Below, piece by piece: positions 4,476-37,756 of a stretch of 64,000 nt of DNA (within the stretch, counting starts at the first letter, position 1; each line of letters starts with the position of its first letter). This DNA is from Escherichia coli. GTDB lineage: Bacteria; Pseudomonadota; Gammaproteobacteria; Enterobacterales; Enterobacteriaceae. The DNA is taken from NCBI RefSeq assembly GCF_024700885.2, contig NZ_CP117016.1; one strand, written 5' to 3'. A program made the position numbers and the translations under genes. The notes below the pieces were generated by a model. The model had not been told where the DNA came from, did not search any database, and saw only the letters and a program-made list of their open reading frames with translations.

Positions 4476-4508
4476 TACTCAATAATCTGCCAGAATCATA
4501 CTCTGCTT

Positions 4509-12439: not shown

Positions 12440-12749
12440 AGCTTTACCTTCCAGACTTACTTAAAAGTCGATCATTGAAGACGTTGATGGTTCACAGATC
12501 ATGATGATATTAACTCAGGCGAAATTGGCTTTGATAAAAACATAAGATTTTTATCACTTTCTAATGAAATTATGGAAGAGATATCACATTTCTATATCAA
12601 TATGAGAATTACGGCGGTGAGTTTATCAAACTGAAGAGAGAGCGCCTGTTCCTTTATCTTATTTCTGATACTTAGCAGCAAATAAATAACGCGATAAAAA
12701 AAGCCAAACGTTTTCGTATTTTACAAACAACCAGAAGCTGGCATCAATT

Positions 12750-12765: not shown

Positions 12766-12808
12766 CATTACCCGTCAAATTAGTCTTTTGCAGCCGCTTG
12801 GATAATTC

Positions 12809-12823
12809 TGGCATAGTTATTGT
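12809..12823 (+). promoter_or_regulatory. candidate sigma54 -24/-12 element TGGCATAGTTATTGT upstream of ygeW
   Basis: GG at -24 spacing and TTGT in place of TTGC; about 90 bp upstream of the ygeW start. Confidence 0.3.
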
Positions 12824-12915
12824 TAGTCCCAGGTATAGCTGTGAAAAGACCAATCACTTTTGGCAAGTCACAGTGAAATAAACCTCTTTGCCTGTCATTC
12901 CACTACCGGGACTTT

Positions 12916-14106: not shown

Positions 14107-14163
14107 CCCCTCGGGCCGATCAGCTGGTCGGCCCTCTATTTCCAGAGGCCAAAAGGATAGGAT

Positions 14164-15360
14164 ATGTCCGTTTTCTCATTGAAGATTGATATCGCCGATA
14201 ACAAATTTTTCAACGGCGAAACATCACCGCTCTTTTCGCAAAGCCAGGCCAAACTGGCGCGCCAGTTCCACCAGAAAATTGCTGGTTATCGCCCAACACC
14301 GCTTTGTGCGCTGGACGATCTCGCAAACCTTTTTGGTGTGAAGAAAATTCTCGTCAAAGACGAATCAAAACGATTCGGTCTGAACGCCTTCAAAATGCTC
14401 GGCGGTGCGTACGCCATCGCTCAATTATTGTGTGAAAAATATCATCTTGATATCGAAACGCTGTCATTTGAGCATCTGAAAAATGCCATCGGCGAAAAAA
14501 TGACCTTCGCGACCACCACCGACGGCAACCACGGGCGCGGTGTGGCATGGGCAGCACAGCAACTCGGACAGAATGCGGTGATTTACATGCCGAAAGGTTC
14601 TGCTCAGGAACGCGTTGACGCCATTCTGAACCTCGGTGCCGAGTGCATCGTCACGGATATGAACTATGACGATACCGTTCGCCTGACCATGCAACACGCG
14701 CAGCAGCACGGCTGGGAAGTGGTGCAAGATACCGCCTGGGAAGGTTACACCAAAATCCCAACCTGGATCATGCAGGGCTATGCAACACTGGCAGATGAAG
14801 CCGTCGAGCAAATGCGTGAAATGGGCGTAACCCCGACGCACGTTCTGCTGCAAGCTGGTGTCGGTGCAATGGCCGGTGGTGTGCTGGGTTATCTGGTCGA
14901 CGTCTATAGCCCGCAAAATCTGCACAGCATTATTGTTGAACCTGACAAAGCTGACTGTATTTATCGCTCCGGCGTCAAAGGCGACATCGTCAACGTTGGC
15001 GGTGATATGGCCACCATCATGGCGGGCCTGGCCTGCGGCGAACCTAACCCGCTGGGCTGGGAAATCCTACGTAACTGCGCCACCCAATTCATCTCCTGCC
15101 AGGACAGTGTTGCCGCATTAGGTATGCGTGTGCTGGGTAATCCGTACGGCAATGACCCGCGCATCATCTCCGGTGAATCCGGCGCTGTCGGTTTGGGCGT
15201 TCTCGCAGCGGTTCATTATCACCCGCAACGTCAAAGCCTGATGGAAAAACTGGCGCTGAACAAAGATGCCGTAGTGCTGGTTATCAGCACTGAAGGCGAC
15301 ACAGACGTGAAGCACTACCGCGAAGTTGTCTGGGAAGGCAAACACGCTGTAGCACCTTAA
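14164..15360 (+). CDS. ygeX: PLP-dependent diaminopropionate ammonia-lyase
   Basis: 398-aa ORF; position after ygeW matches K-12 order; family assignment (Trp-synthase beta / serine dehydratase fold) is from memory of this gene, no specific motif checked. Confidence 0.85.
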   Translation: MSVFSLKIDIADNKFFNGETSPLFSQSQAKLARQFHQKIAGYRPTPLCALDDLANLFGVKKILVKDESKRFGLNAFKMLGGAYAIAQLLCEKYHLDIETLSFEHLKNAIGEKMTFATTTDGNHGRGVAWAAQQLGQNAVIYMPKGSAQERVDAILNLGAECIVTDMNYDDTVRLTMQHAQQHGWEVVQDTAWEGYTKIPTWIMQGYATLADEAVEQMREMGVTPTHVLLQAGVGAMAGGVLGYLVDVYSPQNLHSIIVEPDKADCIYRSGVKGDIVNVGGDMATIMAGLACGEPNPLGWEILRNCATQFISCQDSVAALGMRVLGNPYGNDPRIISGESGAVGLGVLAAVHYHPQRQSLMEKLALNKDAVVLVISTEGDTDVKHYREVVWEGKHAVAP

Positions 15361-15417
15361 TCACCCTATTGGAACTGCTCCCTGCAAAACGGGGAGTAAA
15401 AAATCTGGAGAAAAATA

Positions 15418-16629
15418 ATGGCTAAGAATATTCCATTCAAACTGATTCTTGAAAAAGCAAAAGATTACCAGGCGGACATGACTCGCTTCCTGCGCGACAT
15501 GGTTGCTATTCCCAGTGAAAGCTGCGACGAAAAACGCGTAGTACATCGTATTAAAGAAGAGATGGAAAAAGTCGGCTTCGATAAAGTTGAAATCGACCCG
15601 ATGGGCAACGTTCTCGGTTATATCGGCCACGGCCCGCGTCTGGTGGCAATGGACGCTCATATTGATACCGTCGGCATTGGCAACATCAAAAACTGGGACT
15701 TCGATCCGTACGAAGGCATGGAAACTGATGAGCTGATCGGTGGTCGCGGTACTTCCGACCAGGAAGGCGGCATGGCATCTATGGTTTATGCCGGTAAAAT
15801 CATTAAAGACCTCGGTCTGGAAGATGAATATACCCTGCTGGTTACCGGTACTGTGCAGGAAGAAGACTGCGACGGTCTGTGCTGGCAGTACATTATTGAA
15901 CAATCCGGCATTCGCCCGGAATTTGTGGTCAGTACCGAACCAACCGACTGCCAGGTATACCGTGGTCAGCGCGGTCGTATGGAAATTCGTATTGATGTTC
16001 AGGGTGTTAGCTGCCACGGTTCTGCGCCAGAACGCGGTGACAACGCCATTTTCAAAATGGGTCCGATTCTTGGCGAATTACAAGAACTCTCCCAACGTCT
16101 GGGTTATGACGAATTCCTCGGCAAAGGCACCCTCACCGTTTCTGAAATCTTCTTCACATCCCCAAGCCGTTGCGCTGTAGCAGATAGCTGCGCCGTCTCT
16201 ATTGACCGCCGTCTGACCTGGGGCGAAACCTGGGAAGGCGCGCTGGACGAAATCCGCGCCCTGCCTGCAGTACAGAAAGCTAACGCGGTTGTTTCTATGT
16301 ACAACTACGACCGTCCGTCCTGGACTGGCCTGGTTTACCCAACCGAATGCTACTTCCCGACCTGGAAAGTGGAAGAAGATCACTTCACCGTTAAAGCACT
16401 GGTGAATGCCTACGAAGGTCTGTTTGGCAAAGCGCCGGTTGTTGATAAGTGGACCTTCTCAACTAACGGCGTATCTATCATGGGCCGTCACGGCATTCCG
16501 GTGATCGGCTTTGGCCCAGGTAAAGAACCTGAAGCGCATGCACCTAACGAAAAAACCTGGAAATCTCACCTGGTGACCTGTGCCGCGATGTACGCGGCAA
16601 TCCCGTTAAGCTGGCTGGCAACCGAATAA
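15418..16629 (+). CDS. ygeY: M20-family metallopeptidase / amidohydrolase
   Basis: 403-aa ORF; position between ygeX and hyuA matches K-12 order; M20 (ArgE/DapE) family assignment is from memory, no specific motif checked. Confidence 0.85.
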
Positions 16630-16646
16630 TTACTCTTCACTTATTC

Positions 16647-16671
16647 CCCTCCGGTTCGCCGGAGGGTTTTT
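16647..16671 (+). terminator. intrinsic terminator-like hairpin between ygeY and hyuA
   Basis: CCCTCCGG-TTCG-CCGGAGGG stem-loop followed by TTTTT, ending 11 nt before the hyuA start. Confidence 0.5.
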
Positions 16672-16681
16672 GGAGTTTGCT

Positions 16682-18067
16682 ATGCGCGTATTGATCAAAA
16701 ACGGCACTGTCGTTAACGCAGATGGACAAGCCAAACAGGATTTGCTGATTGAAAGCGGGATTGTTCGCCAGTTGGGCAACAATATTTCGCCACAGCTCCC
16801 GTATGAAGAAATTGATGCCACTGGCTGTTACGTTTTCCCTGGCGGCGTGGATGTCCATACGCATTTCAATATTGATGTCGGCATCGCGCGCAGTTGTGAT
16901 GATTTTTTTACCGGTACCCGCGCAGCTGCGTGTGGCGGTACAACAACCATTATTGACCATATGGGATTTGGCCCGAATGGCTGCCGGTTACGCCATCAAC
17001 TGGAGGTTTATCGTGGTTATGCCGCCCATAAGGCGGTCATCGACTACAGCTTTCACGGTGTGATCCAGCACATTAATCACGCCATCCTCGACGAAATTCC
17101 GATGATGGTCGAAGAAGGACTGAGCAGTTTTAAACTCTATTTAACCTATCAATACAAACTCAACGATGACGAAGTTTTGCAGGCGTTACGCCGCTTGCAT
17201 GAGTCCGGCGCGCTGACCACCGTGCACCCGGAAAATGATGCAGCTATCGCCAGCAAGCGGGCGGAGTTTATTGCCGCAGGGTTAACCGCGCCGCGCTATC
17301 ACGCCTTGAGTCGCCCTCTGGAATGCGAAGCGGAAGCCATCGCCCGCATGATTAACCTGGCACAAATTGCCGGTAACGCCCCGCTCTATATCGTGCACCT
17401 GTCTAACGGCTTAGGTCTGGATTATCTGCGTCTTGCCCGTGCGAATCACCAGCCAGTCTGGGTTGAAACCTGCCCACAATATCTCCTGTTGGACGAACGC
17501 AGTTACGATACAGAAGATGGCATGAAGTTCATTCTTAGCCCACCGCTGCGTAACGTACGCGAGCAGGACAAACTGTGGTGTGGCATCAGCGATGGTGCGA
17601 TTGACGTGGTAGCGACCGATCACTGCACATTCTCGATGGCTCAACGCCTGCAAATTTCTAAAGGCGATTTCAGTCGCTGCCCAAATGGCTTACCCGGTGT
17701 GGAAAACCGCATGCAGTTACTGTTTTCCAGTGGCGTTATGACGGGACGTATAACACCGGAACGTTTTGTTGAATTAACCAGCGCGATGCCCGCCAGGCTG
17801 TTTGGCCTGTGGCCGCAAAAAGGATTATTAGCGCCCGGTTCCGATGGCGACGTGGTGATTATCGACCCACGTCAGAGTCAACAAATTCAGCATCGCCATC
17901 TCCACGACAACGCCGACTACTCGCCATGGGAGGGTTTTACCTGTCAGGGCGCGATTGTCAGAACTTTATCCCGTGGTGAAACGATTTTCTGTGACGGCAC
18001 TTTTACAGGCAAAGCCGGGCGAGGTCGTTTCCTGCGACGCAAACCGTTTGTCCCTCCCGTGCTCTAA
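16682..18067 (+). CDS. hyuA: D-phenylhydantoinase (cyclic amidohydrolase)
   Basis: 461 aa from the ATG at 16682 (MRVLIKNGTVV...); metal-binding HTHF motif; ORF-track start at 16670 is TTG. Confidence 0.85.
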   Translation: MRVLIKNGTVVNADGQAKQDLLIESGIVRQLGNNISPQLPYEEIDATGCYVFPGGVDVHTHFNIDVGIARSCDDFFTGTRAAACGGTTTIIDHMGFGPNGCRLRHQLEVYRGYAAHKAVIDYSFHGVIQHINHAILDEIPMMVEEGLSSFKLYLTYQYKLNDDEVLQALRRLHESGALTTVHPENDAAIASKRAEFIAAGLTAPRYHALSRPLECEAEAIARMINLAQIAGNAPLYIVHLSNGLGLDYLRLARANHQPVWVETCPQYLLLDERSYDTEDGMKFILSPPLRNVREQDKLWCGISDGAIDVVATDHCTFSMAQRLQISKGDFSRCPNGLPGVENRMQLLFSSGVMTGRITPERFVELTSAMPARLFGLWPQKGLLAPGSDGDVVIIDPRQSQQIQHRHLHDNADYSPWEGFTCQGAIVRTLSRGETIFCDGTFTGKAGRGRFLRRKPFVPPVL

Positions 18068-18114
18068 CCACTGCCAAGGATCTATACACAATCAAGAATG
18101 ATGAGTGAGGAAAA

Positions 18115-19047
18115 ATGAGTAAGAAAATTGTTCTCGCCCTGGGCGGGAATGCGCTGGGCGACGATCTGGCCGGGCAAATGAAAGCGGTAAAAATTACTTC
18201 TCAGGCAATTGTTGATTTAATTGCCCAGGGACATGAGGTCATCGTCACTCACGGTAACGGGCCACAGGTGGGCATGATTAACCAGGCCTTTGAAGCTGCC
18301 GCAAAAACTGAAGCGCACTCGCCAATGCTGCCGATGTCTGTCTGTGTTGCCTTAAGCCAGGGTTATATTGGTTACGATCTACAAAACGCATTAAGAGAAG
18401 AACTGCTTTCTCGTGGCATTAATAAACCTGTAGCAACGCTGGTTACCCAGGTCGAAGTCGATGCTAACGACCCGGCATTCCTCAACCCGACCAAACCGAT
18501 CGGTTCGTTCTTTACCGAGCAAGAAGCAGAGCAACTGACAAAACAGGGTTACACTCTGAAAGAAGATGCTGGTCGCGGCTATCGCCGTGTTGTTGCCTCG
18601 CCAAAACCGGTTGATATCATTGAAAAAGAAACGGTTAAAGCGTTGGTAGATGCAGGCCAGGTGGTGATCACCGTTGGCGGTGGTGGTATCCCTGTTATTC
18701 GTGAAGGTAACCACCTGCGTGGTGCCAGTGCGGTTATCGATAAAGACTGGGCCAGCGCCCGTTTAGCAGAAATGATTGATGCCGATATGCTGATCATTCT
18801 GACTGCGGTAGAAAAAGTGGCCATTAACTTCGGTAAAGAGAATGAACAGTGGCTCGATCGCCTGTCATTAAGTGATGCTGAACGCTTTATCGAAGAAGGT
18901 CATTTTGCGAAAGGTTCTATGCTGCCTAAAGTGGAAGCTGCCGCCTCGTTTGCTCGCTCTCGCGCAGGTCGTGAAGCACTGATTACCGTATTGAGCAAAG
19001 CGAAAGAAGGGATTGAAGGCAAAACCGGAACGGTGATTTGTCAGTAA
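18115..19047 (+). CDS. yqeA: carbamate kinase-like protein
   Basis: 310-aa ORF of the amino-acid kinase family (N-terminal LGGNAL, GGGIP motif). Confidence 0.85.
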   Translation: MSKKIVLALGGNALGDDLAGQMKAVKITSQAIVDLIAQGHEVIVTHGNGPQVGMINQAFEAAAKTEAHSPMLPMSVCVALSQGYIGYDLQNALREELLSRGINKPVATLVTQVEVDANDPAFLNPTKPIGSFFTEQEAEQLTKQGYTLKEDAGRGYRRVVASPKPVDIIEKETVKALVDAGQVVITVGGGGIPVIREGNHLRGASAVIDKDWASARLAEMIDADMLIILTAVEKVAINFGKENEQWLDRLSLSDAERFIEEGHFAKGSMLPKVEAAASFARSRAGREALITVLSKAKEGIEGKTGTVICQ

Positions 19048-19050: not shown

Positions 19051-19084
19051 AAAGGCCGGGTGGGTAATACCATCCGGCCATTTT
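19051..19084. terminator. bidirectional terminator between convergent yqeA and yqeB
   Basis: GGCCGG...CCGGCC stem flanked by A-run and T-run. Confidence 0.5.
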
Positions 19085-19087: not shown

Positions 19088-20713
19088 TTAAGCCACTTCC
19101 AGCACTTCTTTTGTCGCTTTCACGCCCTGATGCATCAACATCATTAACGCCTCAAGTACGCCGCCGCCAATTGCCCGGGCTTTATCAGAAACGCTGGTGA
19201 AATCAGCCGTTTCACCACGAGGATCGATATCACCAATTTTAAAACCACCGACCACTGCTAGTCCGTCGTTCAACAAGCCACGCACCATCCCCGTCAACGG
19301 TGCTTTAATTTCATGCTCACCAATCCAGGCAATCACATCGCCCTCTTTCACCAGATCGCCTAATTTCACGTTGGATCGCATAATGCCTGCAGCAGGAGCA
19401 CGGATCACCCGTCGGGTGGTATGCCCCATAATATTGCTAGGAACACCGGTATTCTCCTGCGCACAACCAGAGTAAATCACCTGACCGAGCCAGTGCCCGC
19501 GATTTGTTTCAATTACCGCATGACAATCCTTCCCTGCAATAAAGCCCGGCCCAAGCGCGATTGTTACTGGTGCCATATCTGCCCGCGTCCCCAAATTCTG
19601 TTTCGCCAGAATAGCGTCCACCACGCAAAGCGGTTTCAGTTCATCAAGCAATGAACAGGCGGGATCTACCATCACAGGGATGAATCCGCGTTCGGTAAGT
19701 TTCATCGCTTCCGCAGAGCTGGTTGCCAGGCGGGCAGTGACGCCTTCGACCGTCATTTCGCCATCGAACACGGCCTGGGCAAACGCCACGGTACAACGAA
19801 TCACTGTCGGTTTTTCCACTTCCAGCATGATCACTTTAAAACCCGCATGATACAGACGTAGCGCCACACCACTGGCGATATCCCCCGCACCGCGAATCAC
19901 CACCAGCTGGTGTCCGGAAGGATGAGAAGGTTTCATCATCAGCCCACCCGGCGCGTTATTTTTCACCTGTAATATTTCTGCCAGCACGCTGATGGCGATC
20001 TCCTGCGGCGTTTCCGCACCTATGTTGTAACCAACGGGCGCATGTAAACGGGCAATATGTTCTTCAGCCACGCCTTTCTCACGCAATTGACGCAGGAAAA
20101 GCTGAACCTTGCGGCGACTTGCCAGCAACCCCAGCCATGCAATGGGCTGTTCAATGAGTTTGTCGAGGGCTTCACGATCCTGATTATTCGTGGCAATCAG
20201 GACAAAATTATCAGGGCGAATATCCAGTGCTTCCACTGCCGCACCAAACGACTCAGCATGGAGAAGCGTGGTTGATGGTGGGAATAATTCAGGATTGAGG
20301 CTTTCGCGATAAATATCGGCAACGGCAATATCAAATCCTAATAGCGCCGCACTCTGGGCTATCGCCCGGTTGACATGCCCCGCGCCAATCAACACCAGAC
20401 GTGGACGCATACCATGGACGCTGATAAATACGGACATTGCACCTCCACAATCTGACCCGACAGCATCCGCACCGTTACGAGCCATACGTCCATGGAATAA
20501 TCGCGGCTTACGTTCCTGCAATGCCTGAAGCGACTCTTCAATCACCTTCCGCTCAACCATTCCGCCACCAATTGTACCGACGATAGAGCCATCGGCGCGC
20601 ACTAACATTTGTGCAGAATGGCGGGGAGTCGAGCCTCGGCTATCAACAATTTGCGCCATCGCAAACGGACAATTTTGCTCTTCGAGTTTTGCAGCCTCTG
20701 TGAAAATATTCAT
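19088..20713 (-). CDS. yqeB: XdhC/CoxI-family accessory protein (marker of selenium-dependent molybdenum hydroxylase loci)
   Basis: 541-aa ORF; synteny with yqeC and mocA. Confidence 0.8.
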   Translation of the reverse strand: MNIFTEAAKLEEQNCPFAMAQIVDSRGSTPRHSAQMLVRADGSIVGTIGGGMVERKVIEESLQALQERKPRLFHGRMARNGADAVGSDCGGAMSVFISVHGMRPRLVLIGAGHVNRAIAQSAALLGFDIAVADIYRESLNPELFPPSTTLLHAESFGAAVEALDIRPDNFVLIATNNQDREALDKLIEQPIAWLGLLASRRKVQLFLRQLREKGVAEEHIARLHAPVGYNIGAETPQEIAISVLAEILQVKNNAPGGLMMKPSHPSGHQLVVIRGAGDIASGVALRLYHAGFKVIMLEVEKPTVIRCTVAFAQAVFDGEMTVEGVTARLATSSAEAMKLTERGFIPVMVDPACSLLDELKPLCVVDAILAKQNLGTRADMAPVTIALGPGFIAGKDCHAVIETNRGHWLGQVIYSGCAQENTGVPSNIMGHTTRRVIRAPAAGIMRSNVKLGDLVKEGDVIAWIGEHEIKAPLTGMVRGLLNDGLAVVGGFKIGDIDPRGETADFTSVSDKARAIGGGVLEALMMLMHQGVKATKEVLEVA

Positions 20714-20760
20714 ACCAACCTCAATGGATATCCTTTCAGTAACCCGGAATACCCGGGCCG

Positions 20761-21531
20761 CTAATTCACAAATCTGCGCGCGATTGCAGGATGTTCTTGT
20801 ATATCGCCCAGCCAGATTGCCTCTACGTCGTGTTGTTGCAGCGGTTGAAGGAGCTCGCTTTGTGCAATCGCATTCTCACATTGAGAAAAACGGTTAATGA
20901 ACCAGACTCGCCGACAACCTTGCGGTACGTTTTTAAATGCGCCCTGAGGGTGGCGAACCAGCGCAACGAGATCGCTCAGTTGCAAGGTTGCATCAGGTGT
21001 TAACCCGGTAATATCAGCAAACTGCGACCAGCGATGGACATTTTCTGTGCTCACTTTCGCGCCCAAAATATGTCCTCCCATCACAGCAATCACGCAGCAA
21101 CTGCTTTTGGGTATGCAAGGTTCGTGCTCATCAGGCGCTTTTAACGTCATTCCACGCGAGCCATCTGCCTCAATGAGAATTACGTCACACTCTGGTCGTT
21201 GCACCAGTGCATCAATCGCTTCTGGCGTAAATCCCTGCACTTTTCCCTGGTTCGCTTTCCAGCTGTGAAAACAAAATGAAATGGGGGATGTAAGAGACGC
21301 ATGAGGAAGCATGGCGGGATCACGACAGAAAACCACGGGCCAGTGAGACGTTGGCATAAACATATGTGTCGTCGTAGTGATTAACACACGCCTGCCGCTA
21401 GCCTGGAGCAGTTCTGCCAGCCAAAAAAGCAAGCTGGTTTTCCCCCCAGCCCCAACAACAGAAATCACAGTGGGACGTTTCTGCGCGCCTAAATCAATGA
21501 ATAATGCCGATGGGTCAACTATACTTTTCAC
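20761..21531 (-). CDS. yqeC: selenium-dependent molybdenum hydroxylase system protein (YqeC family)
   Basis: 256-aa ORF with P-loop-like VVGAGGKTS; synteny. Confidence 0.75.
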   Translation of the reverse strand: MKSIVDPSALFIDLGAQKRPTVISVVGAGGKTSLLFWLAELLQASGRRVLITTTTHMFMPTSHWPVVFCRDPAMLPHASLTSPISFCFHSWKANQGKVQGFTPEAIDALVQRPECDVILIEADGSRGMTLKAPDEHEPCIPKSSCCVIAVMGGHILGAKVSTENVHRWSQFADITGLTPDATLQLSDLVALVRHPQGAFKNVPQGCRRVWFINRFSQCENAIAQSELLQPLQQHDVEAIWLGDIQEHPAIARRFVN

Positions 21532-21633
21532 GAGTCTTTATGACCTCTCTGGGATAAATTATCCCCAACTTAATCCATCAGGAAGTAACGCAATTATCAG
21601 GCGTTATTAGCCCCTATAAATAATGGAACCACT

Positions 21634-22212
21634 ATGTCAGCCATCGACTGTATAATTACCGCTGCCGGATTATCATCAAGAATGGGGCAATGGAAAATGA
21701 TGTTACCCTGGCAACAGGGAACAATTCTTGATACAAGTATCAAAAATGCGTTGCAGTTTTGTAGCCGAATTATTTTAGTCACCGGCTATCGTGGTAATGA
21801 ACTGCACGAGCGTTATGCGAACCAGAGCAATATCACTATTATCCACAACCCAGATTATGCGCAGGGTTTACTAACATCAGTAAAGGCCGCAGTACCCGCG
21901 GTAAAAACAGAATATTGTTTTCTCACCCACGGTGACATGCCTACCCTCACCATCGATATTTTTAGAAAAATCTGGTCGTTACGAAATGATGGCGCAATAC
22001 TGCCACTCCATAATGGCATTCCCGGCCATCCGATTTTAGTGTCAAAGCCATGCCTGATGCAGGCAATCCAGCGTCCCAATATCACCAATATGCGTCAGGC
22101 ACTCCTTATGGGAGATCATTATTCCGTCGAAATAGAAAATGCAGAAATAATTTTAGATATTGATACTCCGGACGACTTTATTACAGCGCAAAAAAGGTAT
22201 ACTAAAATTTAG
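21634..22212 (+). CDS. mocA: molybdenum cofactor cytidylyltransferase (MobA-like)
   Basis: 192-aa ORF with MobA-like nucleotidyltransferase N-terminus (AAGLSSRMG). Confidence 0.8.
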   Translation: MSAIDCIITAAGLSSRMGQWKMMLPWQQGTILDTSIKNALQFCSRIILVTGYRGNELHERYANQSNITIIHNPDYAQGLLTSVKAAVPAVKTEYCFLTHGDMPTLTIDIFRKIWSLRNDGAILPLHNGIPGHPILVSKPCLMQAIQRPNITNMRQALLMGDHYSVEIENAEIILDIDTPDDFITAQKRYTKI

Positions 22213-22366
22213 AAAATGTAGTTAAACGATTGCGTTCAAATATTTAATCCCTCCAGCACTCTTTATCATAATGATAAGGAATCACTGATTTTGAGAAAAG
22301 AGAAAAAGTGATAAATGGGCTGGCAATAATAATTTTCAGGAGTGATTTTAATTCTCATTTGGCACC

Positions 22367-22382
22367 TGTGAGTTCATTCACA
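22367..22382. promoter_or_regulatory. CRP binding site TGTGAGTTCATTCACA upstream of ygfK
   Basis: Perfect match to both CRP consensus half-sites TGTGA-N6-TCACA. Confidence 0.55.
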
Positions 22383-22436
22383 AAAAGCTCCTAAGTTTCG
22401 AGCCGCCTCACATTTTTTTATATTTCCCGCCAAACC

Positions 22437-22452
22437 TGGCAAGAGTGGTGCG
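22437..22452 (+). promoter_or_regulatory. candidate sigma54 -24/-12 element TGGCAAGAGTGGTGCG upstream of ygfK
   Basis: GG-N10-GC spacing correct; about 80 bp upstream of the ygfK start. Confidence 0.3.
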
Positions 22453-22533
22453 ATTGTTGCTCTATCCCCCTAAACCACCGGATTTCTCAACACCGGTCAC
22501 TCAATGATATCTGTATAAGCTAAGGAGAGGGTT

Positions 22534-25500
22534 ATGGGGGATATTATGCGTCCCATTCCGTTTGAGGAACTTTTGACGCGCATATTTGATGAATACCAAC
22601 AACAACGCTCAATCTTTGGTATTCCCGAGCAACAGTTTTACTCACCCGTAAAAGGTAAAACTGTTAGCGTCTTCGGTGAAACCTGTGCCACTCCCGTCGG
22701 CCCTGCCGCTGGCCCGCACACGCAGCTCGCGCAAAATATTGTCACTTCCTGGCTGACTGGCGGGCGCTTCATCGAACTAAAAACCGTCCAAATTCTTGAC
22801 CGTCTGGAGCTGGAAAAGCCCTGTATCGATGCCGAAGACGAGTGCTTTAACACCGAATGGTCTACCGAATTTACCCTGCTTAAAGCCTGGGATGAATACC
22901 TCAAAGCCTGGTTTGCCCTGCACCTTCTCGAAGCGATGTTCCAGCCTTCTGATTCCGGTAAATCGTTCATCTTTAATATGAGCGTCGGTTATAACCTCGA
23001 AGGTATTAAGCAACCGCCGATGCAACAGTTCATCGACAATATGATGGATGCATCTGACCATCCGAAATTCGCTCAATATCGCGATACGCTGAATAAATTA
23101 CTCCAGGATGACGCATTTTTAGCCCGCCACGGATTGCAGGAAAAACGCGAATGCCTGCAGGCCTTACCGGCACGCATCCCCACCAGCATGGTAGAAGGCG
23201 TTACCCTCTCCACCATGCACGGCTGTCCTCCGCATGAAATCGAAGCCATTTGCCGCTACATGCTGGAAGAAAAAGGGCTCAATACCTTTGTGAAACTCAA
23301 CCCGACCTTACTGGGGTACGCGCGTGTTCGTGAGATCCTCGATGTCTGCGGTTTCGGTTACATAGGCTTAAAAGAAGAGTCATTTGATCACGACCTCAAG
23401 CTGACGCAAGCGCTGGAAATGCTGGAACGCCTGATGGTACTGGCAAAAGAAAAATCACTCGGCTTTGGCGTAAAACTGACTAACACTCTCGGCACCATCA
23501 ACAATAAAGGCGCACTGCCTGGTGAAGAGATGTATATGTCAGGCCGTGCGCTGTTCCCGCTCTCCATCAATGTTGCAGCAGTTCTCTCTCGCGCCTTTGA
23601 CGGCAAACTGCCCATTTCTTATTCCGGTGGTGCCAGTCAGCTGACTATCCGCGATATTTTTGATACTGGTATTCGCCCTATTACTATGGCAACCGACCTG
23701 CTGAAACCTGGCGGCTATCTGCGCTTAAGTGCCTGCATGCGCGAGCTGGAAGGCTCCGACGCCTGGGGGCTTGACCATGTTGACGTCGAACGCCTGAACA
23801 AACTGGCAGCAGACGCGTTAACCATGGAATACACTCAGAAACACTGGAAGCCAGAAGAGCGTATTGAAGTGGCAGAAGACCTGCCGCTGACCGACTGCTA
23901 CGTTGCACCGTGCGTTACTGCTTGCGCCATTAAACAGGATATTCCGGAATACATCCGTCTGCTTGGCGAACACCGCTATGCCGACGCACTGGAACTCATC
24001 TACCAACGCAACGCCCTGCCCGCCATTACCGGTCATATTTGCGATCACCAGTGCCAATACAACTGTACCCGCCTGGATTACGACAGTGCGCTGAATATCC
24101 GCGAACTGAAAAAAGTCGCGCTGGAAAAAGGTTGGGATGAATATAAGCAACGCTGGCACAAACCAGCCGGTTCTGGTTCACGCCATCCGGTTGCCGTGAT
24201 TGGTGCAGGTCCGGCGGGTCTGGCAGCAGGTTACTTCCTTGCCAGAGCGGGCCATCCGGTTACGCTGTTTGAACGCGAAGCCAATGCGGGCGGCGTGGTG
24301 AAAAATATCATTCCTCAGTTCCGTATTCCTGCAGAGTTAATTCAGCACGATATCGATTTTGTTGCCGCTCACGGCGTGAAATTTGAGTATGGCTGCTCAC
24401 CCGATTTGACCGTTGAACAGTTAAAAAATCAGGGCTTCCACTATGTTCTGATTGCCACCGGCACTGATAAAAATAGCGGTGTGAAACTGGCGGGCGACAA
24501 CCAAAATGTCTGGAAATCACTCCCCTTCCTGCGTGAATACAACAAGGGCACAGCGCTCAAGCTGGGCAAACATGTGGTCGTTGTCGGGGCGGGTAACACG
24601 GCAATGGACTGCGCTCGTGCGGCGTTACGCGTTCCAGGCGTAGAAAAAGCAACGGTCGTTTACCGTCGTTCACTGCAAGAGATGCCAGCATGGCGCGAAG
24701 AGTATGAAGAAGCGTTGCACGACGGTGTGGAGTTCCGTTTCCTGAATAATCCGGAACGTTTCGATGCTGATGGCACCTTAACCTTGCGCGTTATGTCGCT
24801 TGGCGAACCTGATGAGAAAGGTCGTCGCCGTCCGGTTGAAACCAACGAAACAGTAACACTGCATGTAGACAGCCTGATCACCGCCATTGGTGAACAGCAG
24901 GATACTGAAGCCCTGAATGCGATGGGCGTGCCGCTGGACAAAAACGGCTGGCCAGACGTCGACCATAATGGCGAAACTCGTCTGACTGACGTCTTTATGA
25001 TCGGCGACGTACAGCGCGGACCATCCTCCATTGTCGCTGCTGTCGGAACCGCGCGTCGGGCGACCGATGCCATCCTTAGTCGGGAAAACATCCGTTCCCA
25101 CCAGAACGATAAATACTGGAACAACGTCAATCCGGCGGAAATCTATCAACGCAAAGGCGATATCTCTATCACCCTGGTGGATAGCGACGATCGTGACGCG
25201 TTTGTCGCCCAGGAAGCCGCACGCTGCCTTGAATGTAACTACGTTTGCAGCAAGTGTGTGGATGTCTGCCCGAACCGCGCCAACGTATCCATTGCGGTCC
25301 CTGGCTTCCAGATCCGTTTCCAGACGCTGCACCTCGACGCTTACTGTAACGAATGCGGCAACTGCGCTCAGTTCTGCCCGTGGAACGGTAAACCGTACAA
25401 AGACAAAATCACCGTCTTCAGCCTGTCGCAAGACTTTGATAACAGCAGCAACCCTGGCTTCCTTGTGGAAGATTGCCGGGTACGAGTACGTCTGAATAAC

Positions 25501-25632
25501 CAAAGCTGGGTGTTAAACATCGACAGCGAAGGTCAGTTCAACAACGAACCACCGGAGCTGAACGATATGTGCCGCATTATTAGCCATGTCCACCAGCATC
25601 ATCATTATCTGCTGGGCCGCGTGGAGGTGTAA
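22534..25632 (+). CDS. ygfK: large Fe-S / FAD-NAD(P) oxidoreductase (glutamate-synthase-beta-like domain), putative selenate reductase subunit
   Basis: 1032-aa ORF; Rossmann motif [21 protein letters not shown]; Cys clusters; AAGGAG Shine-Dalgarno. Confidence 0.85.
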   Translation: MGDIMRPIPFEELLTRIFDEYQQQRSIFGIPEQQFYSPVKGKTVSVFGETCATPVGPAAGPHTQLAQNIVTSWLTGGRFIELKTVQILDRLELEKPCIDAEDECFNTEWSTEFTLLKAWDEYLKAWFALHLLEAMFQPSDSGKSFIFNMSVGYNLEGIKQPPMQQFIDNMMDASDHPKFAQYRDTLNKLLQDDAFLARHGLQEKRECLQALPARIPTSMVEGVTLSTMHGCPPHEIEAICRYMLEEKGLNTFVKLNPTLLGYARVREILDVCGFGYIGLKEESFDHDLKLTQALEMLERLMVLAKEKSLGFGVKLTNTLGTINNKGALPGEEMYMSGRALFPLSINVAAVLSRAFDGKLPISYSGGASQLTIRDIFDTGIRPITMATDLLKPGGYLRLSACMRELEGSDAWGLDHVDVERLNKLAADALTMEYTQKHWKPEERIEVAEDLPLTDCYVAPCVTACAIKQDIPEYIRLLGEHRYADALELIYQRNALPAITGHICDHQCQYNCTRLDYDSALNIRELKKVALEKGWDEYKQRWHKPAGSGSRHPVAVIGAGPAGLAAGYFLARAGHPVTLFEREANAGGVVKNIIPQFRIPAELIQHDIDFVAAHGVKFEYGCSPDLTVEQLKNQGFHYVLIATGTDKNSGVKLAGDNQNVWKSLPFLREYNKGTALKLGKHVVVVGAGNTAMDCARAALRVPGVEKATVVYRRSLQEMPAWREEYEEALHDGVEFRFLNNPERFDADGTLTLRVMSLGEPDEKGRRRPVETNETVTLHVDSLITAIGEQQDTEALNAMGVPLDKNGWPDVDHNGETRLTDVFMIGDVQRGPSSIVAAVGTARRATDAILSRENIRSHQNDKYWNNVNPAEIYQRKGDISITLVDSDDRDAFVAQEAARCLECNYVCSKCVDVCPNRANVSIAVPGFQIRFQTLHLDAYCNECGNCAQFCPWNGKPYKDKITVFSLSQDFDNSSNPGFLVEDCRVRVRLNNQSWVLNIDSEGQFNNEPPELNDMCRIISHVHQHHHYLLGRVEV

Positions 25633-25634
25633 TC

Positions 25635-26963
25635 ATGTTGATTCTGAAGAATGTCACCGCAGTGCAGTTACACCCGGCGAAAGTGCAGGAAGGCGTTGAT
25701 ATCGCCATCGAAAATGATGTGATTGTCGCTATCGGCGATGCCCTGACGCAACGCTACCCCGATGCCAGCTACAAAGAGATGCATGGTCGGATTGTGATGC
25801 CAGGAATTGTCTGCTCGCACAACCATTTTTACTCGGGGCTGTCCCGCGGAATTATGGCAAACATCGCCCCCTGCCCGGATTTCATCTCAACGCTGAAAAA
25901 TCTCTGGTGGCGACTCGATCGCACCCTTGATGAAGAGTCGCTCTATTACAGCGGACTGATTTGTTCCCTGGAAGCGATTAAGGGCGGATGTACATCGGTT
26001 ATCGATCACCATGCCTCTCCGGCGTATATCGACGGGTCGCTCTCCACATTGCGCAACGCATTTTTAAAAGTTGGCCTGCGCGCGATGACCTGTTTTGAAA
26101 CTACTGACCGTAACAACGGTATCAAAGAGTTGCAGGAAGGTGTAGAAGAAAACATCCGCTTCGCCCGTCAGATTGATGAGGCGAAGAAAGCAGCAACCGA
26201 ACCGTATCTGGTGGAAGCACATATCGGCGCTCACGCGCCGTTTACCGTGCCGGATGCCGGTCTGGAGATGCTGCGTGAAGCCGTGAAAGCCACAGGTCGT
26301 GGTTTGCACATTCACGCTGCGGAAGACCTTTATGACGTTTCCTACAGTCACCACTGGTACGGCAAAGACCTGCTGGCACGACTGGCGCAATTCGATCTCA
26401 TCGACAGCAAAACGCTGGTCGCTCATGGGCTGTACTTGTCGAAAGATGACATCGCCCTACTCAATCAGCGCGATGCGTTCCTAGTGCATAACGCCCGTTC
26501 AAACATGAACAACCATGTCGGCTACAACCATCACCTTAGCGACATCCGCAATCTGGCGTTGGGAACTGACGGCATTGGTTCGGACATGTTTGAAGAGATG
26601 AAATTTGCCTTCTTTAAACATCGCGATGCGGGTGGTCCGCTGTGGCCTGACAGTTTTGCCAAAGCACTGGCTAACGGCAACGAACTGATGAGCCGCAACT
26701 TTGGCGCGAAATTTGGCCTTCTGGAAGCCGGTTACAAAGCCGATTTAACCATTTGCGATTACAACTCGCCGACACCGCTGCTGGCAGACAATATCGCCGG
26801 GCATATCGCTTTCGGTATGGGCTCAGGCAGCGTTCATAGCGTGATGGTCAATGGCGTGATGGTCTATGAAGACCGTCAGTTTAACTTCGATTGCGATTCC
26901 ATTTATGCGCAAGCCAGAAAAGCCGCTGCCAGTATGTGGCGTCGGATGGATGCGCTGGCATAA
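25635..26963 (+). CDS. ssnA: amidohydrolase-family protein (chlorohydrolase / aminohydrolase)
   Basis: 442-aa ORF with HxH metal-binding motif (SHNHF); directly follows ygfK. Confidence 0.85.
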   Translation: MLILKNVTAVQLHPAKVQEGVDIAIENDVIVAIGDALTQRYPDASYKEMHGRIVMPGIVCSHNHFYSGLSRGIMANIAPCPDFISTLKNLWWRLDRTLDEESLYYSGLICSLEAIKGGCTSVIDHHASPAYIDGSLSTLRNAFLKVGLRAMTCFETTDRNNGIKELQEGVEENIRFARQIDEAKKAATEPYLVEAHIGAHAPFTVPDAGLEMLREAVKATGRGLHIHAAEDLYDVSYSHHWYGKDLLARLAQFDLIDSKTLVAHGLYLSKDDIALLNQRDAFLVHNARSNMNNHVGYNHHLSDIRNLALGTDGIGSDMFEEMKFAFFKHRDAGGPLWPDSFAKALANGNELMSRNFGAKFGLLEAGYKADLTICDYNSPTPLLADNIAGHIAFGMGSGSVHSVMVNGVMVYEDRQFNFDCDSIYAQARKAAASMWRRMDALA

Positions 26964-27013
26964 ATGACAAATACCCTCTTCCCGTAGGGAAGAGGGTTAA
27001 ATAAGGAAAGAAG

Positions 27014-27793
27014 ATGATTGAACAATTTTTCAGGCCCGACTCTGTCGAACAGGCGCTGGAACTGAAGCGCCGCTACAAGGATGAAGCCGTCTGGTTCGCC
27101 GGGGGCAGCAAACTCAACGCTACACCAACCCGTACCGATAAAAAGATTGCCATTTCCTTACAGGATCTGGAACTGGACTGGGTTGACTGGGATAACGGTG
27201 CACTGCGGATTGGCGCAATGTCTCGCTTGCAGCCACTGCGTGATGCGCGATTTATTCCTGCAGCACTGCGTGAAGCCCTCGGCTTTGTCTACTCTCGCCA
27301 TGTTCGTAATCAGTCGACCATTGGTGGTGAAATCGCCGCCCGGCAGGAAGAGTCTGTGCTGCTTCCCGTCCTGCTGGCACTGGATGCTGAACTGGTTTTT
27401 GGCAATGGCGAAACACTGTCAATCGAAGAGTACCTGGCCTGCCCATGCGATCGCCTGCTAACCGAAATTATCATTAAAGATCCGTATCGCACCTGTGCGA
27501 CCCGCAAAATTAGCCGTTCTCAGGCAGGTTTAACCGTCGTGACGGCAGCCGTTGCAATGACAGACCACGACGGTATGCGAATTGCGCTGGATGGCGTCGC
27601 CAGTAAAGCCCTGCGTCTGCACGATGTTGAAAAACAAAATCTGGAAGGCAATGCACTTGAACAGGCTGTCGCCAACGCCATTTTCCCGCAGGAAGATTTG
27701 CGGGGCAGCGTGGCCTATAAACGCTATATCACGGGAGTTCTGGTAGCCGACCTTTATGCCGACTGCCAACAGGCTGGGGAGGAAGCCGTATGA
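27014..27793 (+). CDS. ygfM: FAD-binding molybdopterin-dehydrogenase subunit-like protein
   Basis: 259-aa ORF; ATGA overlap with xdhD. Confidence 0.8.
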   Translation: MIEQFFRPDSVEQALELKRRYKDEAVWFAGGSKLNATPTRTDKKIAISLQDLELDWVDWDNGALRIGAMSRLQPLRDARFIPAALREALGFVYSRHVRNQSTIGGEIAARQEESVLLPVLLALDAELVFGNGETLSIEEYLACPCDRLLTEIIIKDPYRTCATRKISRSQAGLTVVTAAVAMTDHDGMRIALDGVASKALRLHDVEKQNLEGNALEQAVANAIFPQEDLRGSVAYKRYITGVLVADLYADCQQAGEEAV

Positions 27794-30660
27794 TCATCCA
27801 CTTTACTTTAAATGGCGCGCCTCAGGAGCTAACCGTTAATCCAGGCGAAAACGTGCAAAAGCTGTTGTTTAACATGGGAATGCACTCTGTACGCAACAGC
27901 GATGATGGATTCGGGTTTGCCGGTTCTGACGCAATTATCTGTAACGGTAATATCGTTAACGCGTCCTTGCTTATCGCCGCACAGTTAGAGAAGGCAGATA
28001 TTCGTACCGCAGAGTCTCTGGGCAAATGGAACGAGTTAAGTCTGGTTCAACAGGCAATGGTTGATGTTGGCGTGGTGCAGTCTGGTTATAACGATCCAGC
28101 TGCGGCTCTGATTATCACCGATCTTCTCGATCGCATTGCCACACCGACCCGCGAAGAGATCGACGACGCGCTTTCTGGTTTGTTCAGCCGCGATGCAGGC
28201 TGGCAACAATACTATCAGGTCATTGAACTGGCGGTTGCACGTAAAAATAATCCGCAGGCCACCATTGATATCGCTCCAACTTTCCGCGATGACCTTGAAG
28301 TCATTGGTAAGCATTATCCTAAAACTGATGCCGCGAAAATGGTGCAGGCGAAACCCTGCTATGTTGAAGACCGCGTAACGGCTGACGCCTGCGTCATTAA
28401 AATGTTACGTAGCCCACACGCTCACGCACTGATTACTCATCTGGATATCAGCAAAGCTGAAGCCTTACCGGGCGTTGTTCACGTTATTACTCACCTGAAT
28501 TGCCCGGATATCTACTATACCCCGGGCGGTCAGAGCGCACCGGAACCGTCACCGCTTGACCGCCGTATGTTCGGCAAGAAAATGCGTCACGTCGGCGATC
28601 GCGTTGCTGCGGTCGTCGCTGAAAGTGAAGAAATTGCGCTCGAAGCACTGAAGCTCATCGACGTTGAATATGAAGTGCTTAAACCTGTAATGTCGATCGA
28701 CGAAGCAATGGCGGAAGATGCGCCTGTCGTGCACGATGAACCGGTGGTGTATGTTGCTGGTGCGCCAGATACTCTGGAAGACGATAACAGCCATGCAGCC
28801 CAGCGCGGCGAACATATGATCATCAACTTCCCGATCGGTTCTCGCCCCCGTAAAAATATCGCCGCCAGTATTCATGGTCATATTGGCGATATGGACAAAG
28901 GCTTTGCCGATGCCGATGTGATCATTGAGCGAACCTATAACTCAACGCAGGCACAGCAGTGCCCGACTGAAACACATATCTGCTTTACCCGTATGGACGG
29001 CGATCGTCTGGTGATCCACGCCTCCACCCAGGTACCATGGCACTTACGCCGCCAGGTCGCGCGCCTCGTGGGCATGAAACAGCATAAAGTTCATGTCATT
29101 AAAGAGCGAGTTGGCGGCGGTTTTGGTTCCAAACAAGACATCCTGCTGGAAGAAGTGTGCGCCTGGGCAACCTGCGTGACCGGACGTCCGGTACTGTTCC
29201 GCTACACCCGTGAAGAAGAGTTTATTGCTAACACCTCTCGCCACGTCGCGAAAGTCACCGTCAAACTGGGCGCGAAAAAAGATGGTCGCCTGACGGCAGT
29301 GAAGATGGATTTCCGCGCCAACACGGGCCCTTACGGCAACCACTCACTCACCGTACCGTGTAACGGACCGGCGCTGTCGCTGCCGTTATATCCGTGTGAT
29401 AACGTCGATTTCCAGGTCACCACCTACTACAGCAACATTTGCCCAAATGGTGCTTATCAGGGTTATGGCGCGCCGAAAGGTAACTTCGCTATCACCATGG
29501 CATTAGCGGAACTGGCTGAACAGTTACAGATCGACCAGCTGGAAATTATCGAACGTAACCGTGTACACGAAGGGCAAGAGCTGAAAATTCTCGGTGCAAT
29601 CGGTGAAGGTAAAGCGCCGACCTCCGTTCCTTCCGCCGCCAGCTGCGCACTGGAAGAGATCCTGCGTCAGGGTCGCGAGATGATCCACTGGTCGTCACCG
29701 AAACCGCAAAATGGTGACTGGCACATCGGTCGCGGCGTCGCCATTATCATGCAGAAATCGGGTATCCCAGATATCGATCAGGCTAACTGCATGATCAAAC
29801 TGGAATCGGACGGCACCTTTATCGTTCATTCTGGCGGTGCGGATATTGGTACTGGTTTGGATACTGTGGTGACGAAACTGGCAGCAGAAGTGCTGCACTG
29901 CCCACCGCAGGACGTGCATGTTATCTCCGGTGATACCGATCATGCGTTGTTTGATAAAGGCGCATATGCCTCGTCCGGTACTTGCTTCTCGGGTAACGCG
30001 GCGCGTTTGGCAGCAGAAAATCTGCGGGAGAAAATTCTGTTCCACGGTGCACAAATGTTGGGTGAGCCAGTGGCAGATGTCCAACTAGCAACGCCGGGCG
30101 TCGTGCGCGGCAAGAAAGGCGAAGTTAGTTTCGGGGATATTGCCCATAAAGGCGAAACCGGCACCGGCTTTGGTTCACTGGTGGGAACTGGCAGTTATAT
30201 CACGCCTGATTTCGCCTTCCCGTATGGCGCAAACTTCGCTGAAGTTGCCGTCAACGCGCGTACGGGTGAAATCCGCCTGGATAAATTCTACGCCTTGCTG
30301 GACTGCGGTACACCGGTCAACCCGGAATTAGCATTGGGACAAATCTACGGTGCTACCCTGCGAGCTATCGGCCACAGTATGAGCGAAGAGATCATTTATG
30401 ACGCCGAAGGTCACCCGTTAACGCGTGATTTACGCAGTTACGGTGCACCGAAAATTGGTGACATTCCGCGTGATTTCCGCGCAGTGCTGGTGCCGAGCGA
30501 CGATAAAGTCGGCCCGTTCGGGGCGAAATCGATCTCGGAAATCGGTGTAAATGGCGCAGCTCCGGCGATTGCTACCGCAATTCACGATGCCTGCGGCATC
30601 TGGTTACGCGAATGGCATTTCACACCGGAGAAAATACTCACCGCGCTGGAAAAAATATAA
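27790..30660 (+). CDS. xdhD: fused molybdopterin-binding / Fe-S hydroxylase (xanthine dehydrogenase family)
   Basis: 956-aa ORF with GGGFGSKQD molybdopterin motif. Confidence 0.85.
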   Translation: MIIHFTLNGAPQELTVNPGENVQKLLFNMGMHSVRNSDDGFGFAGSDAIICNGNIVNASLLIAAQLEKADIRTAESLGKWNELSLVQQAMVDVGVVQSGYNDPAAALIITDLLDRIATPTREEIDDALSGLFSRDAGWQQYYQVIELAVARKNNPQATIDIAPTFRDDLEVIGKHYPKTDAAKMVQAKPCYVEDRVTADACVIKMLRSPHAHALITHLDISKAEALPGVVHVITHLNCPDIYYTPGGQSAPEPSPLDRRMFGKKMRHVGDRVAAVVAESEEIALEALKLIDVEYEVLKPVMSIDEAMAEDAPVVHDEPVVYVAGAPDTLEDDNSHAAQRGEHMIINFPIGSRPRKNIAASIHGHIGDMDKGFADADVIIERTYNSTQAQQCPTETHICFTRMDGDRLVIHASTQVPWHLRRQVARLVGMKQHKVHVIKERVGGGFGSKQDILLEEVCAWATCVTGRPVLFRYTREEEFIANTSRHVAKVTVKLGAKKDGRLTAVKMDFRANTGPYGNHSLTVPCNGPALSLPLYPCDNVDFQVTTYYSNICPNGAYQGYGAPKGNFAITMALAELAEQLQIDQLEIIERNRVHEGQELKILGAIGEGKAPTSVPSAASCALEEILRQGREMIHWSSPKPQNGDWHIGRGVAIIMQKSGIPDIDQANCMIKLESDGTFIVHSGGADIGTGLDTVVTKLAAEVLHCPPQDVHVISGDTDHALFDKGAYASSGTCFSGNAARLAAENLREKILFHGAQMLGEPVADVQLATPGVVRGKKGEVSFGDIAHKGETGTGFGSLVGTGSYITPDFAFPYGANFAEVAVNARTGEIRLDKFYALLDCGTPVNPELALGQIYGATLRAIGHSMSEEIIYDAEGHPLTRDLRSYGAPKIGDIPRDFRAVLVPSDDKVGPFGAKSISEIGVNGAAPAIATAIHDACGIWLREWHFTPEKILTALEKI

Positions 30661-30669: not shown

Positions 30670-30698
30670 GGCCGCTTCGGCGGCCTGTTTCTCTGTTT
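30670..30698 (+). terminator. rho-independent terminator after xdhD
   Basis: GGCCGC-TTCG-GCGGCC hairpin followed by TGTTTCTCTGTTT. Confidence 0.6.
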
Positions 30699-37405: not shown

Positions 37406-37756
37406 TTGCATCCCTTTCATTTAATGAGTTATGTCTTCTCAAATTTCGCGATGCAATAAATGGGCATATATTAGGTAGCATGGCCGATTTAATTATAATT
37501 TTGCGACTGAGTTCAAATTATTGCCCCTCAATCTGTGCCGCTTTCATTATTTCAACATTGCCGACCAAAAGAGATCTAACCAGATAAAAACGATTAAATA
37601 CGAGAGTGCGACATGCCAGAATGATTAATGAAATATCAATATGAGAAAATTACAGATAATTCCATTGTCAGGTTCTCTTCTCATTTTCGTGGTTTAACCA
37701 CGATTATGTGATTGCCTCCGCAATTCCTGTCTCTAACTCCCCTTCCTCGCAAAAAC

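Follow-up and report, generated by a model that had tools for sequence, protein, structure and literature searches.

For the selenium-dependent molybdenum hydroxylases, Haft and Self (2008, PMC2276186) defined three families of accessory proteins, TIGR03309, TIGR03172 and TIGR03310. A locus of Escherichia coli was among those that defined this accessory set, and the EF2563 domain was reported in selD-positive genomes only. Here, we analyse the E. coli locus at positions 19088-30660 of a 64,000-nucleotide stretch of contig NZ_CP117016.1. The whole stretch is referred to below as the window. The locus comprises the genes yqeB, yqeC, mocA, ygfK, ssnA, ygfM and xdhD.

The enzymes of this locus have been characterised in two recent studies. 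In the work of Li et al. (2025, PMC12507026), a protein of ~30 kDa, taken as YgfM, the subunit that binds flavin adenine dinucleotide (FAD), came along in the purification of E. coli XdhD, and XdhD-YgfM reduced urate to 2,8-dioxopurine ("yanthine") in an NADH-dependent manner. YgfK and SsnA, supplied with NAD(P)H, converted 2,8-dioxopurine to ureidomethyl-hydantoin, either enzyme alone being inactive, and HyuA, YgeW (or UacY), YgeY and YgeX carried this product on to pyruvate. In the same work, the xdhD deletion mutant still consumed xanthine, accumulated urate and formed no 2,8-dioxopurine, the ygfK mutant formed no ureidomethyl-hydantoin and the xdhA mutant did not consume xanthine. Liu et al. 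(2025, bioRxiv 10.1101/2025.04.24.650524) arrived independently at the same pathway in Clostridium sporogenes and E. coli and named the enzymes DOPDH and DOPOR; YgfK required NADPH, and selenate was without effect. As related in PMC2997495, MocA was characterised by Neumann et al. (2009) as the CTP:molybdopterin cytidylyltransferase that makes the molybdopterin cytosine dinucleotide (MCD) cofactor.

Compared with these systems, the region very probably represents the entry and cofactor-maturation modules of the anaerobic reductive "2,8-dioxopurine" pathway of uric acid degradation of E. coli, in which maturation would include the installation of selenium. All seven genes are intact. The minus strand carries yqeB and yqeC, and the plus strand carries mocA, ygfK, ssnA, ygfM and xdhD. 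In the identical record, RefSeq annotates the same seven genes as the list of open reading frames (ORFs). Every protein spans its own NCBIfam model end to end and exceeds the curated cut-off (Table 1), and the Pfam architectures are consistent with these assignments. The agreement of NCBIfam, Pfam and annotation confirms the gene set and shows that it is no chance pattern. The core of a 2,8-dioxopurine cluster, namely an XdhD-type molybdenum subunit, YgfK and SsnA, is contiguous and in one operon, all three proteins scoring above their equivalog or subfamily cut-offs. The genes ygfK-ssnA-ygfM-xdhD are packed in an operon-like manner, with gaps of 2 nt and 50 nt and a 4-nt overlap of ygfM and xdhD; yqeC and yqeB share a strand and are separated by 47 nt.

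XdhD contains the Pfam domains Fer2_2, Ald_Xan_dh_C, MoCoBD_1 and MoCoBD_2, and YgfM contains FAD_binding_5, which together make up the domain set typical for xanthine oxidase family members, with a [2Fe-2S] domain, an a/b hammerhead, two MoCo-binding domains and an FAD module. XdhD is 30% identical to XdhA over the molybdenum domain and retains E606 and the catalytic E917. A sequence search of the PDB found no solved structure for XdhD or YgfK; the closest solved relative of XdhD is the alpha subunit of 4-hydroxybenzoyl-CoA reductase, likewise a reductive dehydroxylase (phmmer).

An earlier sequence-only reading of this DNA holds in its observations and in part of its interpretation. Its boundaries coincide exactly with the ORF list and its gene names with those of RefSeq, the NCBIfam scores bear out the identities, and the profile search that it proposed for the YqeB and YqeC families returned TIGR03309 and TIGR03172, both above cut-off. 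Its statement that yqeB and yqeC precede the other genes is right with respect to position but needs rewording, since the two are transcribed divergently from mocA, on the opposite strand. The interval that it delimited holds the genes as named but is only the entry half of the pathway, leaving out ygeW-yqeA at 12919-19047. Its remark that neither the XdhD/YgfM substrate nor the function of SsnA is well defined held until 2025 and is now outdated, urate/2,8-dioxopurine and ring opening having been assigned by Li et al. (2025) and Liu et al. (2025).

The steps of the pathway have been shown experimentally by others and are as follows. XdhD with its FAD subunit YgfM strips the 6-oxo group from urate, giving 2,8-dioxopurine, which YgfK dearomatises using NAD(P)H. 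Ring hydrolysis by SsnA draws this unfavourable reduction forward, and the products of ygeW-yqeA carry out the remaining steps, which yield pyruvate, ammonia and carbamoyl phosphate/ATP. The MCD form of the molybdenum cofactor (Moco) is provided by MocA. YgeW, YgeX, YgeY, HyuA and YqeA all exceed their NCBIfam cut-offs, and the flanks hold the regulator gene ygeV, xdhABC, purine transporter genes, guaD and ygfST according to the annotation of the identical record. Several database names in this part of the window have been superseded by the biochemistry of 2025. The "putative selenate reductase subunit YgfK" of RefSeq/NCBIfam (22534-25632) has a published role as a 2,8-dioxopurine reductase, the "YgeY family selenium metabolism-linked hydrolase" (15418-16629) cleaves the 3-ureido group (albizziin) and the "D-phenylhydantoinase" (16682-18067) is HyuA, the ureidomethyl-hydantoin hydrolase.

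Table 1. Genes, promoters and hairpins of the uric acid degradation locus and its surroundings, in coordinates of the window
Feature	Positions	Strand	NCBIfam model, score and cut-off (bits)	Assignment and basis
yqeB	19088-20713	-	TIGR03309, 412 (220); profile positions 1-256/256 covered	XdhC-like Moco chaperone (aa 12-252) fused to EF2563/TIGR03309 domain (aa 271-526)
yqeC	20761-21531	-	TIGR03172, 237 (73)	Predicted SIMIBI-class P-loop NTPase; aa 27-33 form Walker A, GAGGKTS; E121-x-D123-G124
mocA (ygfJ)	21634-22212	+	TIGR03310, 210 (186)	CTP:molybdopterin cytidylyltransferase, forms MCD form of Moco; NCBIfam, Pfam NTP_transf_3
ygfK	22534-25632	+	TIGR03315, 1774 (835)	Fe-S flavoprotein, NAD(P)H:2,8-dioxopurine oxidoreductase (DOPOR); NCBIfam, Pfam, published biochemistry
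ssnA	25635-26963	+	TIGR03314, 735 (455)	Amidohydrolase, opens reduced purine ring, coupled to YgfK; NCBIfam, Pfam, published biochemistry
ygfM	27014-27793	+	TIGR03312, 487 (241)	FAD-binding subunit of XdhD enzyme; NCBIfam, FAD_binding_5, published co-purification with XdhD
xdhD	27790-30660	+	TIGR03313, 2116 (1102)	[2Fe-2S] and MCD-binding subunit; urate to 2,8-dioxopurine reductase (DOPDH); NCBIfam, published biochemistry
Sigma-54 promoter of ygfK operon, GTGGTGCGATTGTTGCT	22445-22461	+		Exact match; chromatin immunoprecipitation sequencing (ChIP-seq) site OS31, Bonocora et al. 2015, PMC4591121
Intragenic sigma-54 promoter within yqeC, drives yqeB, TGAGCACGAACCTTGCA	21114-21130	-		Exact match; PMC4591121
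Purine-cluster sigma-54 promoters (four)	PxdhA 6887-6903; PygeW 12808-12824; PygfK 22445-22461; PygfT 37452-37468			
ygeV	10661-12439	-		Sigma-54 enhancer-binding protein; RefSeq and NCBIfam; YgeV iModulon in PMC10602906
ygeW-ygeX(dpaL)-ygeY-hyuA-yqeA(arcC)	12919-19047	+		Rest of uric acid pathway, directly upstream; RefSeq and NCBIfam, published roles
Hairpin, 10-bp stem, between convergent yqeA and yqeB stops	19054-19079			Consensus scan
GC-rich hairpin just past xdhD stop	30670-30685			Consensus scan; likely operon end

The link of the locus to selenium was studied with a neighbourhood scan, in which the C-terminal (EF2563) domain of YqeB served as the query and one genome per species was used. 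Relatives of the domain occur in at least 578 species genomes. Eighty loci were kept, 20 of them proteobacterial and 60 from other phyla, and tblastn searches using proteins of the window identified their neighbours. In 61 of the 80 species loci, yqeC is no more than 2.5 kb away from yqeB. Of the 20 proteobacterial loci, 19 encode EF2563 as a fusion with the XdhC-like domain, and yqeB is adjoined by the genes for YqeC (19), MocA (18), YgfK (17) and SsnA (15), while selD adjoins it in none. Among the 60 loci from Firmicutes, Spirochaetes, Chloroflexi, Actinobacteria and other phyla, 42 have YqeC as a neighbour (median distance 0.8 kb), 22 have selD within 2.2 kb of yqeB (median 0.7 kb) and 30 have the XdhC-like domain fused or adjacent to EF2563. 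That a single-copy gene such as selD occurs near yqeB in over one third of unrelated genomes goes, in our judgement, far beyond chance, no formal background rate having been computed. The window contains no selD; of 5426 complete E. coli genomes, 5425 carry the gene. It is thus a core gene of the species, and its co-occurrence with the locus is uninformative there.

The elements of the set of Haft and Self (2008) are found together in E. coli: TIGR03309, the adjacent TIGR03172, TIGR03310, the neighbouring XdhD/YgfM and, at the species level, selD. The claim of the sequence-only reading that yqeB, yqeC and mocA form a marker known from comparative genomics goes back to that study (PMC2276186), and the proximity of yqeC to yqeB in 61 of the 80 species agrees with it. 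The co-occurrence of selD that this reading called for across genomes is seen as adjacency in the 22 non-proteobacterial loci; it has no counterpart in the 20 proteobacterial ones and is uninformative within E. coli.

Biochemical data connect the pathway to selenium in other bacteria. DOPDH from a selD mutant of C. sporogenes is intact but inactive (Liu et al., bioRxiv 10.1101/2025.04.24.650524). Biochemistry on this C. sporogenes orthologue and genetics in C. difficile have demonstrated selenium dependence, in both cases for clostridial enzymes only, and growth of two proteobacterial species on urate required micromolar molybdenum and selenium (Kasahara et al., preprint). From this and from the gene neighbourhood we infer the "labile-selenium" label for E. 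coli XdhD. To our knowledge, there is no sequence signature for labile non-selenocysteine selenium.

Several points weigh against the presence of selenium in the E. coli enzyme. No experiment in the literature shows selenium in E. coli XdhD, and Li et al. (PMC12507026) obtained active XdhD-YgfM in a study that nowhere mentions selenium supplementation. The E. coli enzyme has an FAD subunit and uses NADH, unlike the clostridial enzyme (PMC12507026; bioRxiv 10.1101/2025.04.24.650524). Deletion of yqeC in C. difficile gave no phenotype. The formate dehydrogenases of E. coli are selenocysteine-molybdenum enzymes. Uricolysis in this species is formate-dependent, judging by the NCBIfam names of the YgfT/AegA families, and the requirement of Proteobacteria for selenium and molybdenum on urate is for that reason confounded. 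The lack of selD beside yqeB in the proteobacterial loci belongs to the same side. LB medium, however, contains trace selenium sufficient for selenoprotein synthesis. The recovery of active enzyme from unsupplemented cells therefore proves nothing about selenium.

In the one serious alternative, E. coli XdhD-YgfM would have an ordinary sulfido-MCD, YqeB being an XdhC-type Moco chaperone shared with XdhABC and selenium having no role. NCBIfam, Pfam and PDB searches identify the YqeB N-terminal half as a genuine homologue of XdhC, and in 2010 YqeB was proposed as a shared chaperone because neither xdhABC nor xdhD has an xdhC-type gene of its own (PMC2997495). The activity of XdhD-YgfM with selenium unmentioned, the differing electron-transfer set-up, the absence of selD from the proteobacterial neighbourhoods and the core status of selD in E. 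coli would all be in keeping with such a chaperone. Its partner domain, EF2563, is nonetheless the one reported in selD-positive genomes only (PMC2276186), and it has selD as its neighbour in 22 of the 60 loci from other phyla. The orthologous C. sporogenes enzyme is inactive without SelD, proteobacterial growth on urate required added selenium and the activity from unsupplemented cells carries no weight, given the trace selenium in LB; we therefore consider a selenium-free E. coli enzyme unlikely. The older NCBIfam/RefSeq annotation treats ygfK-ygfM-xdhD as a selenate reductase, and the names "putative selenate reductase subunit YgfK", Se_sel_red_FAD and Se_sel_red_Mo persist; as cited in PMC2276186, they rest on a genetic report of 2002. 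Purified YgfK, however, neither needed selenate nor was stimulated by it and specifically reduced 2,8-dioxopurine (bioRxiv 10.1101/2025.04.24.650524), XdhD-YgfM reduces urate and the whole pathway has been reconstituted in agreement with the mutant phenotypes (PMC12507026), which leaves this function very improbable. The least probable assignment, by a small difference, is that of a second xanthine/hypoxanthine dehydrogenase redundant with XdhABC. The identity of XdhD to XdhA over the molybdenum domain and the retained catalytic glutamate speak for it, and XdhD scores 517 bits on the XdhA model, yet this is under the cut-off of 780. The mutant lacking xdhD consumes xanthine and accumulates urate, whereas the one lacking xdhA does not consume xanthine (PMC12507026), and according to the literature the orthologue of C. 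sporogenes acts on urate and 2,8-dioxopurine alone, interconverting the two.

The proteins that would deliver selenium were described by Johnstone and Self as having no predicted domains. The predicted structure of YqeC has a predicted local distance difference test (pLDDT) score of 91. Its matches are SIMIBI NTPases, among them UreG, HypB and CooC, which are metallocentre-assembly factors. Fold and motifs suggest that YqeC is a SIMIBI-class P-loop NTPase that shares no sequence family with these proteins. Across 44 homologues that cover several phyla, conservation is 100% for the Walker A motif, E121-x-D123-G124, K97 and K131 of YqeC. Positions 213-216 read N-K-x-D in most of the 44 homologues and N-R-F-S in E. 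coli. A sequence search of the PDB with YqeC gave no match, and with YqeB only the XdhC half was matched. The C-terminal half of YqeB looks like a Rossmann-like domain followed by a biotinyl-like barrel in the model. The EF2563 domain contains many invariant Arg, Lys, Asp and His residues, which would be compatible with a ligand that is an anion, for instance selenophosphate, a nucleotide or MCD.

In gammaproteobacterial YqeC, that of enterobacteria included, the N-K-x-D motif is lost and Cys139, within an H-E-P-C motif, is invariant; most other phyla have Val at this position. Both changes may reflect a lineage-specific shift in nucleotide preference or mechanism. Cys139 was at first a candidate selenium carrier, H-E-P-C being invariant in 38 gammaproteobacterial sequences. 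It was rejected as a universal catalytic residue, the 44 multi-phylum homologues having Val in 23 cases and Cys in 19. Among 80 homologues, the C-terminal domain of YqeB has no conserved cysteine either. With no universally conserved cysteine in YqeB or YqeC, a persulfide-like selenium relay is unlikely.

In the selenium-dependent pathway considered here, YqeB would hold MCD by its XdhC-like half. The EF2563 domain and the YqeC NTPase would install a terminal selenium ligand in place of the usual sulfido ligand, the source of selenium would be the selenophosphate of SelD and the selenium-bearing cofactor would then enter XdhD. More specifically, YqeC could be a GTPase-like SIMIBI assembly factor that, together with YqeB, replaces MCD's terminal sulfido/oxo ligand by selenium ahead of the insertion into XdhD. 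We put this forward tentatively, as a possibility somewhat short of even chances. The division of YqeB on which it draws, into an XdhC-like Moco holder, a Rossmann-like nucleotide- or anion-binding domain and a biotinyl-like barrel, is a tentative assignment.

Two sigma-54 promoters mapped in E. coli K-12 are present in the locus with zero mismatches. The first drives ygfK-ssnA-ygfM-xdhD and the second, within yqeC, drives yqeB. Mutagenesis in K-12 showed that yqeB depends on the intragenic site for its mRNA and its protein (Bonocora et al. 2015, PMC4591121). A scan with a generic sigma-54 pattern found the ygfK site only, the count being at chance level; the promoter evidence therefore rests on exact matches to mapped sites. 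The -24/-12 element 5' of ygfK is kept in Citrobacter, Kluyvera, Cedecea, Edwardsiella, Morganella and Photobacterium, and separate sigma-54 control of yqeB recurs across distant lineages. The link between sigma-54 regulation and the pathway is, we infer, the use of purines as a nitrogen source.

The enhancer-binding protein YgeV is presumed to activate the sigma-54 promoters of the cluster. An exact 9-mer, ATATTGATA, occurs at 6781-6789 (+), 12595-12603 (-), 22157-22165 (+) and 37634-37642 (-), 106-280 bp upstream of each of the four purine-cluster sigma-54 promoters, and is extended to TCATATTGATA at three of them. The window contains eight copies against 0.43 expected from shuffles, a comparison that leaves the AT-rich intergenic background uncontrolled. 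With at most one mismatch, the 9-mer is also found upstream of ygfK in Citrobacter, Kluyvera and Cedecea. It may be a candidate upstream activating site for YgeV, for which no published binding site was found in the literature. A perfect palindrome, TATCATAATGATA, is situated at 22264-22276, between the mocA stop codon and the ygfK sigma-54 promoter; it has TGATA/TATCA half-sites, as does the ATATTGATA motif.

Consensus scans for other signals were at chance level, with 13 sigma-70 promoters against 12.2 from shuffles and 18 terminators against 13.5, two plausible hairpins aside (Table 1). A further hairpin with an 11-bp stem (ACCCTCTTCCC...GGGAAGAGGGT) occupies 26973-26997 in the 50-nt ssnA-ygfM spacer within the operon. 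It may be an element of mRNA processing or stability, or meaningless. The Rfam scan of the whole window revealed no RNA element inside 19088-30660; it found 6S RNA (ssrS) and a Sib antitoxin RNA at 61434-61617 and 62266-62416, ordinary E. coli features unrelated to the locus.

By megablast, the 11.6-kb stretch is 100% identical to the genomes of E. coli SMS-3-5 and MLI114 and 95-99% identical to 5176 further records. The stretch from yqeB to xdhD is found in 5185 of 5426 complete E. coli genomes. About 241 of these genomes have no match to it, and selD is kept in all but one of the 5426. As the stretch is unmatched while selD stays, some lineages have lost the uricolytic entry module. Elsewhere in the window (3843-5712), an IS1A element (~4689-5386) has yqeH and tRNA-Gly (5639-5712) as its direct neighbours, and actS and xdhA come next. 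The K-12 interval from yqeH to tRNA-Gly holds the remnant ETT2 type III secretion island, and the lineage of the window appears to have lost this remnant beside IS1.

The locus encodes the first committed steps of uric acid destruction by gut bacteria and thus bears on gout and hyperuricaemia. It also marks the least understood cellular use of selenium. If YqeC and YqeB do swap the MCD ligand as proposed, the mechanism of the "third selenium trait", a question dating from 2008, could be worked out at a genetically tractable locus in E. coli. The fold assignments, the lack of a universal cysteine and the separate sigma-54 control of yqeB are modest starting points for work on the two proteins. 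The residual value of the locus lies in the chemistry of selenium insertion, with E. coli as a convenient model, and in the possible shared upstream motif at four sigma-54 promoters.

With respect to known systems, this is the reference E. coli locus itself, already known, and no variant of it. It corresponds to b2875-b2881 of E. coli K-12 (where xdhD = ygfN) in genes, order, strands, lengths, sigma-54 sites and annotation. The differences from K-12 are only allelic, most E. coli being 95-99% identical and the window matching the SMS-3-5 lineage. All three accessory families of the "third selenium utilisation trait" of Haft and Self (2008) are present beside an enzyme that belongs to the xanthine oxidase family. 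selD is far off on the E. coli chromosome and commonly adjacent in Firmicutes, Spirochaetes and Actinobacteria, and the XdhC-like domain that is fused to YqeB in Proteobacteria is encoded by a separate gene in most other phyla.

The clusters of C. sporogenes DOPDH (XdhAC) and C. difficile XdhD/UacX share the urate to 2,8-dioxopurine step, the SsnA step and the linkage to yqeB/yqeC. The clostridial enzyme, however, has no YgfM FAD subunit and makes no use of NAD(P)H, whereas the E. coli enzyme has both features, and C. difficile possesses the PydA-like UacX in place of YgfK. The nicotinate dehydrogenase of Eubacterium barkeri (PDB 3hrd), a selenium-containing molybdenum hydroxylase of known structure, shares the molybdenum domain of the xanthine oxidase family (phmmer E = 2.5e-44 to XdhD) but differs from XdhD in its substrate and its split molybdenum subunit. 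YqeC is predicted to be a fold relative of UreG, HypB, CooC and the GTPases of the signal recognition particle (SRP) and FtsY, with 10-19% identity and no common Pfam or NCBIfam family. Its K97, K131 and E137-P138 motifs are specific to YqeC, and E. coli YqeC reads NRFS in place of NKxD.

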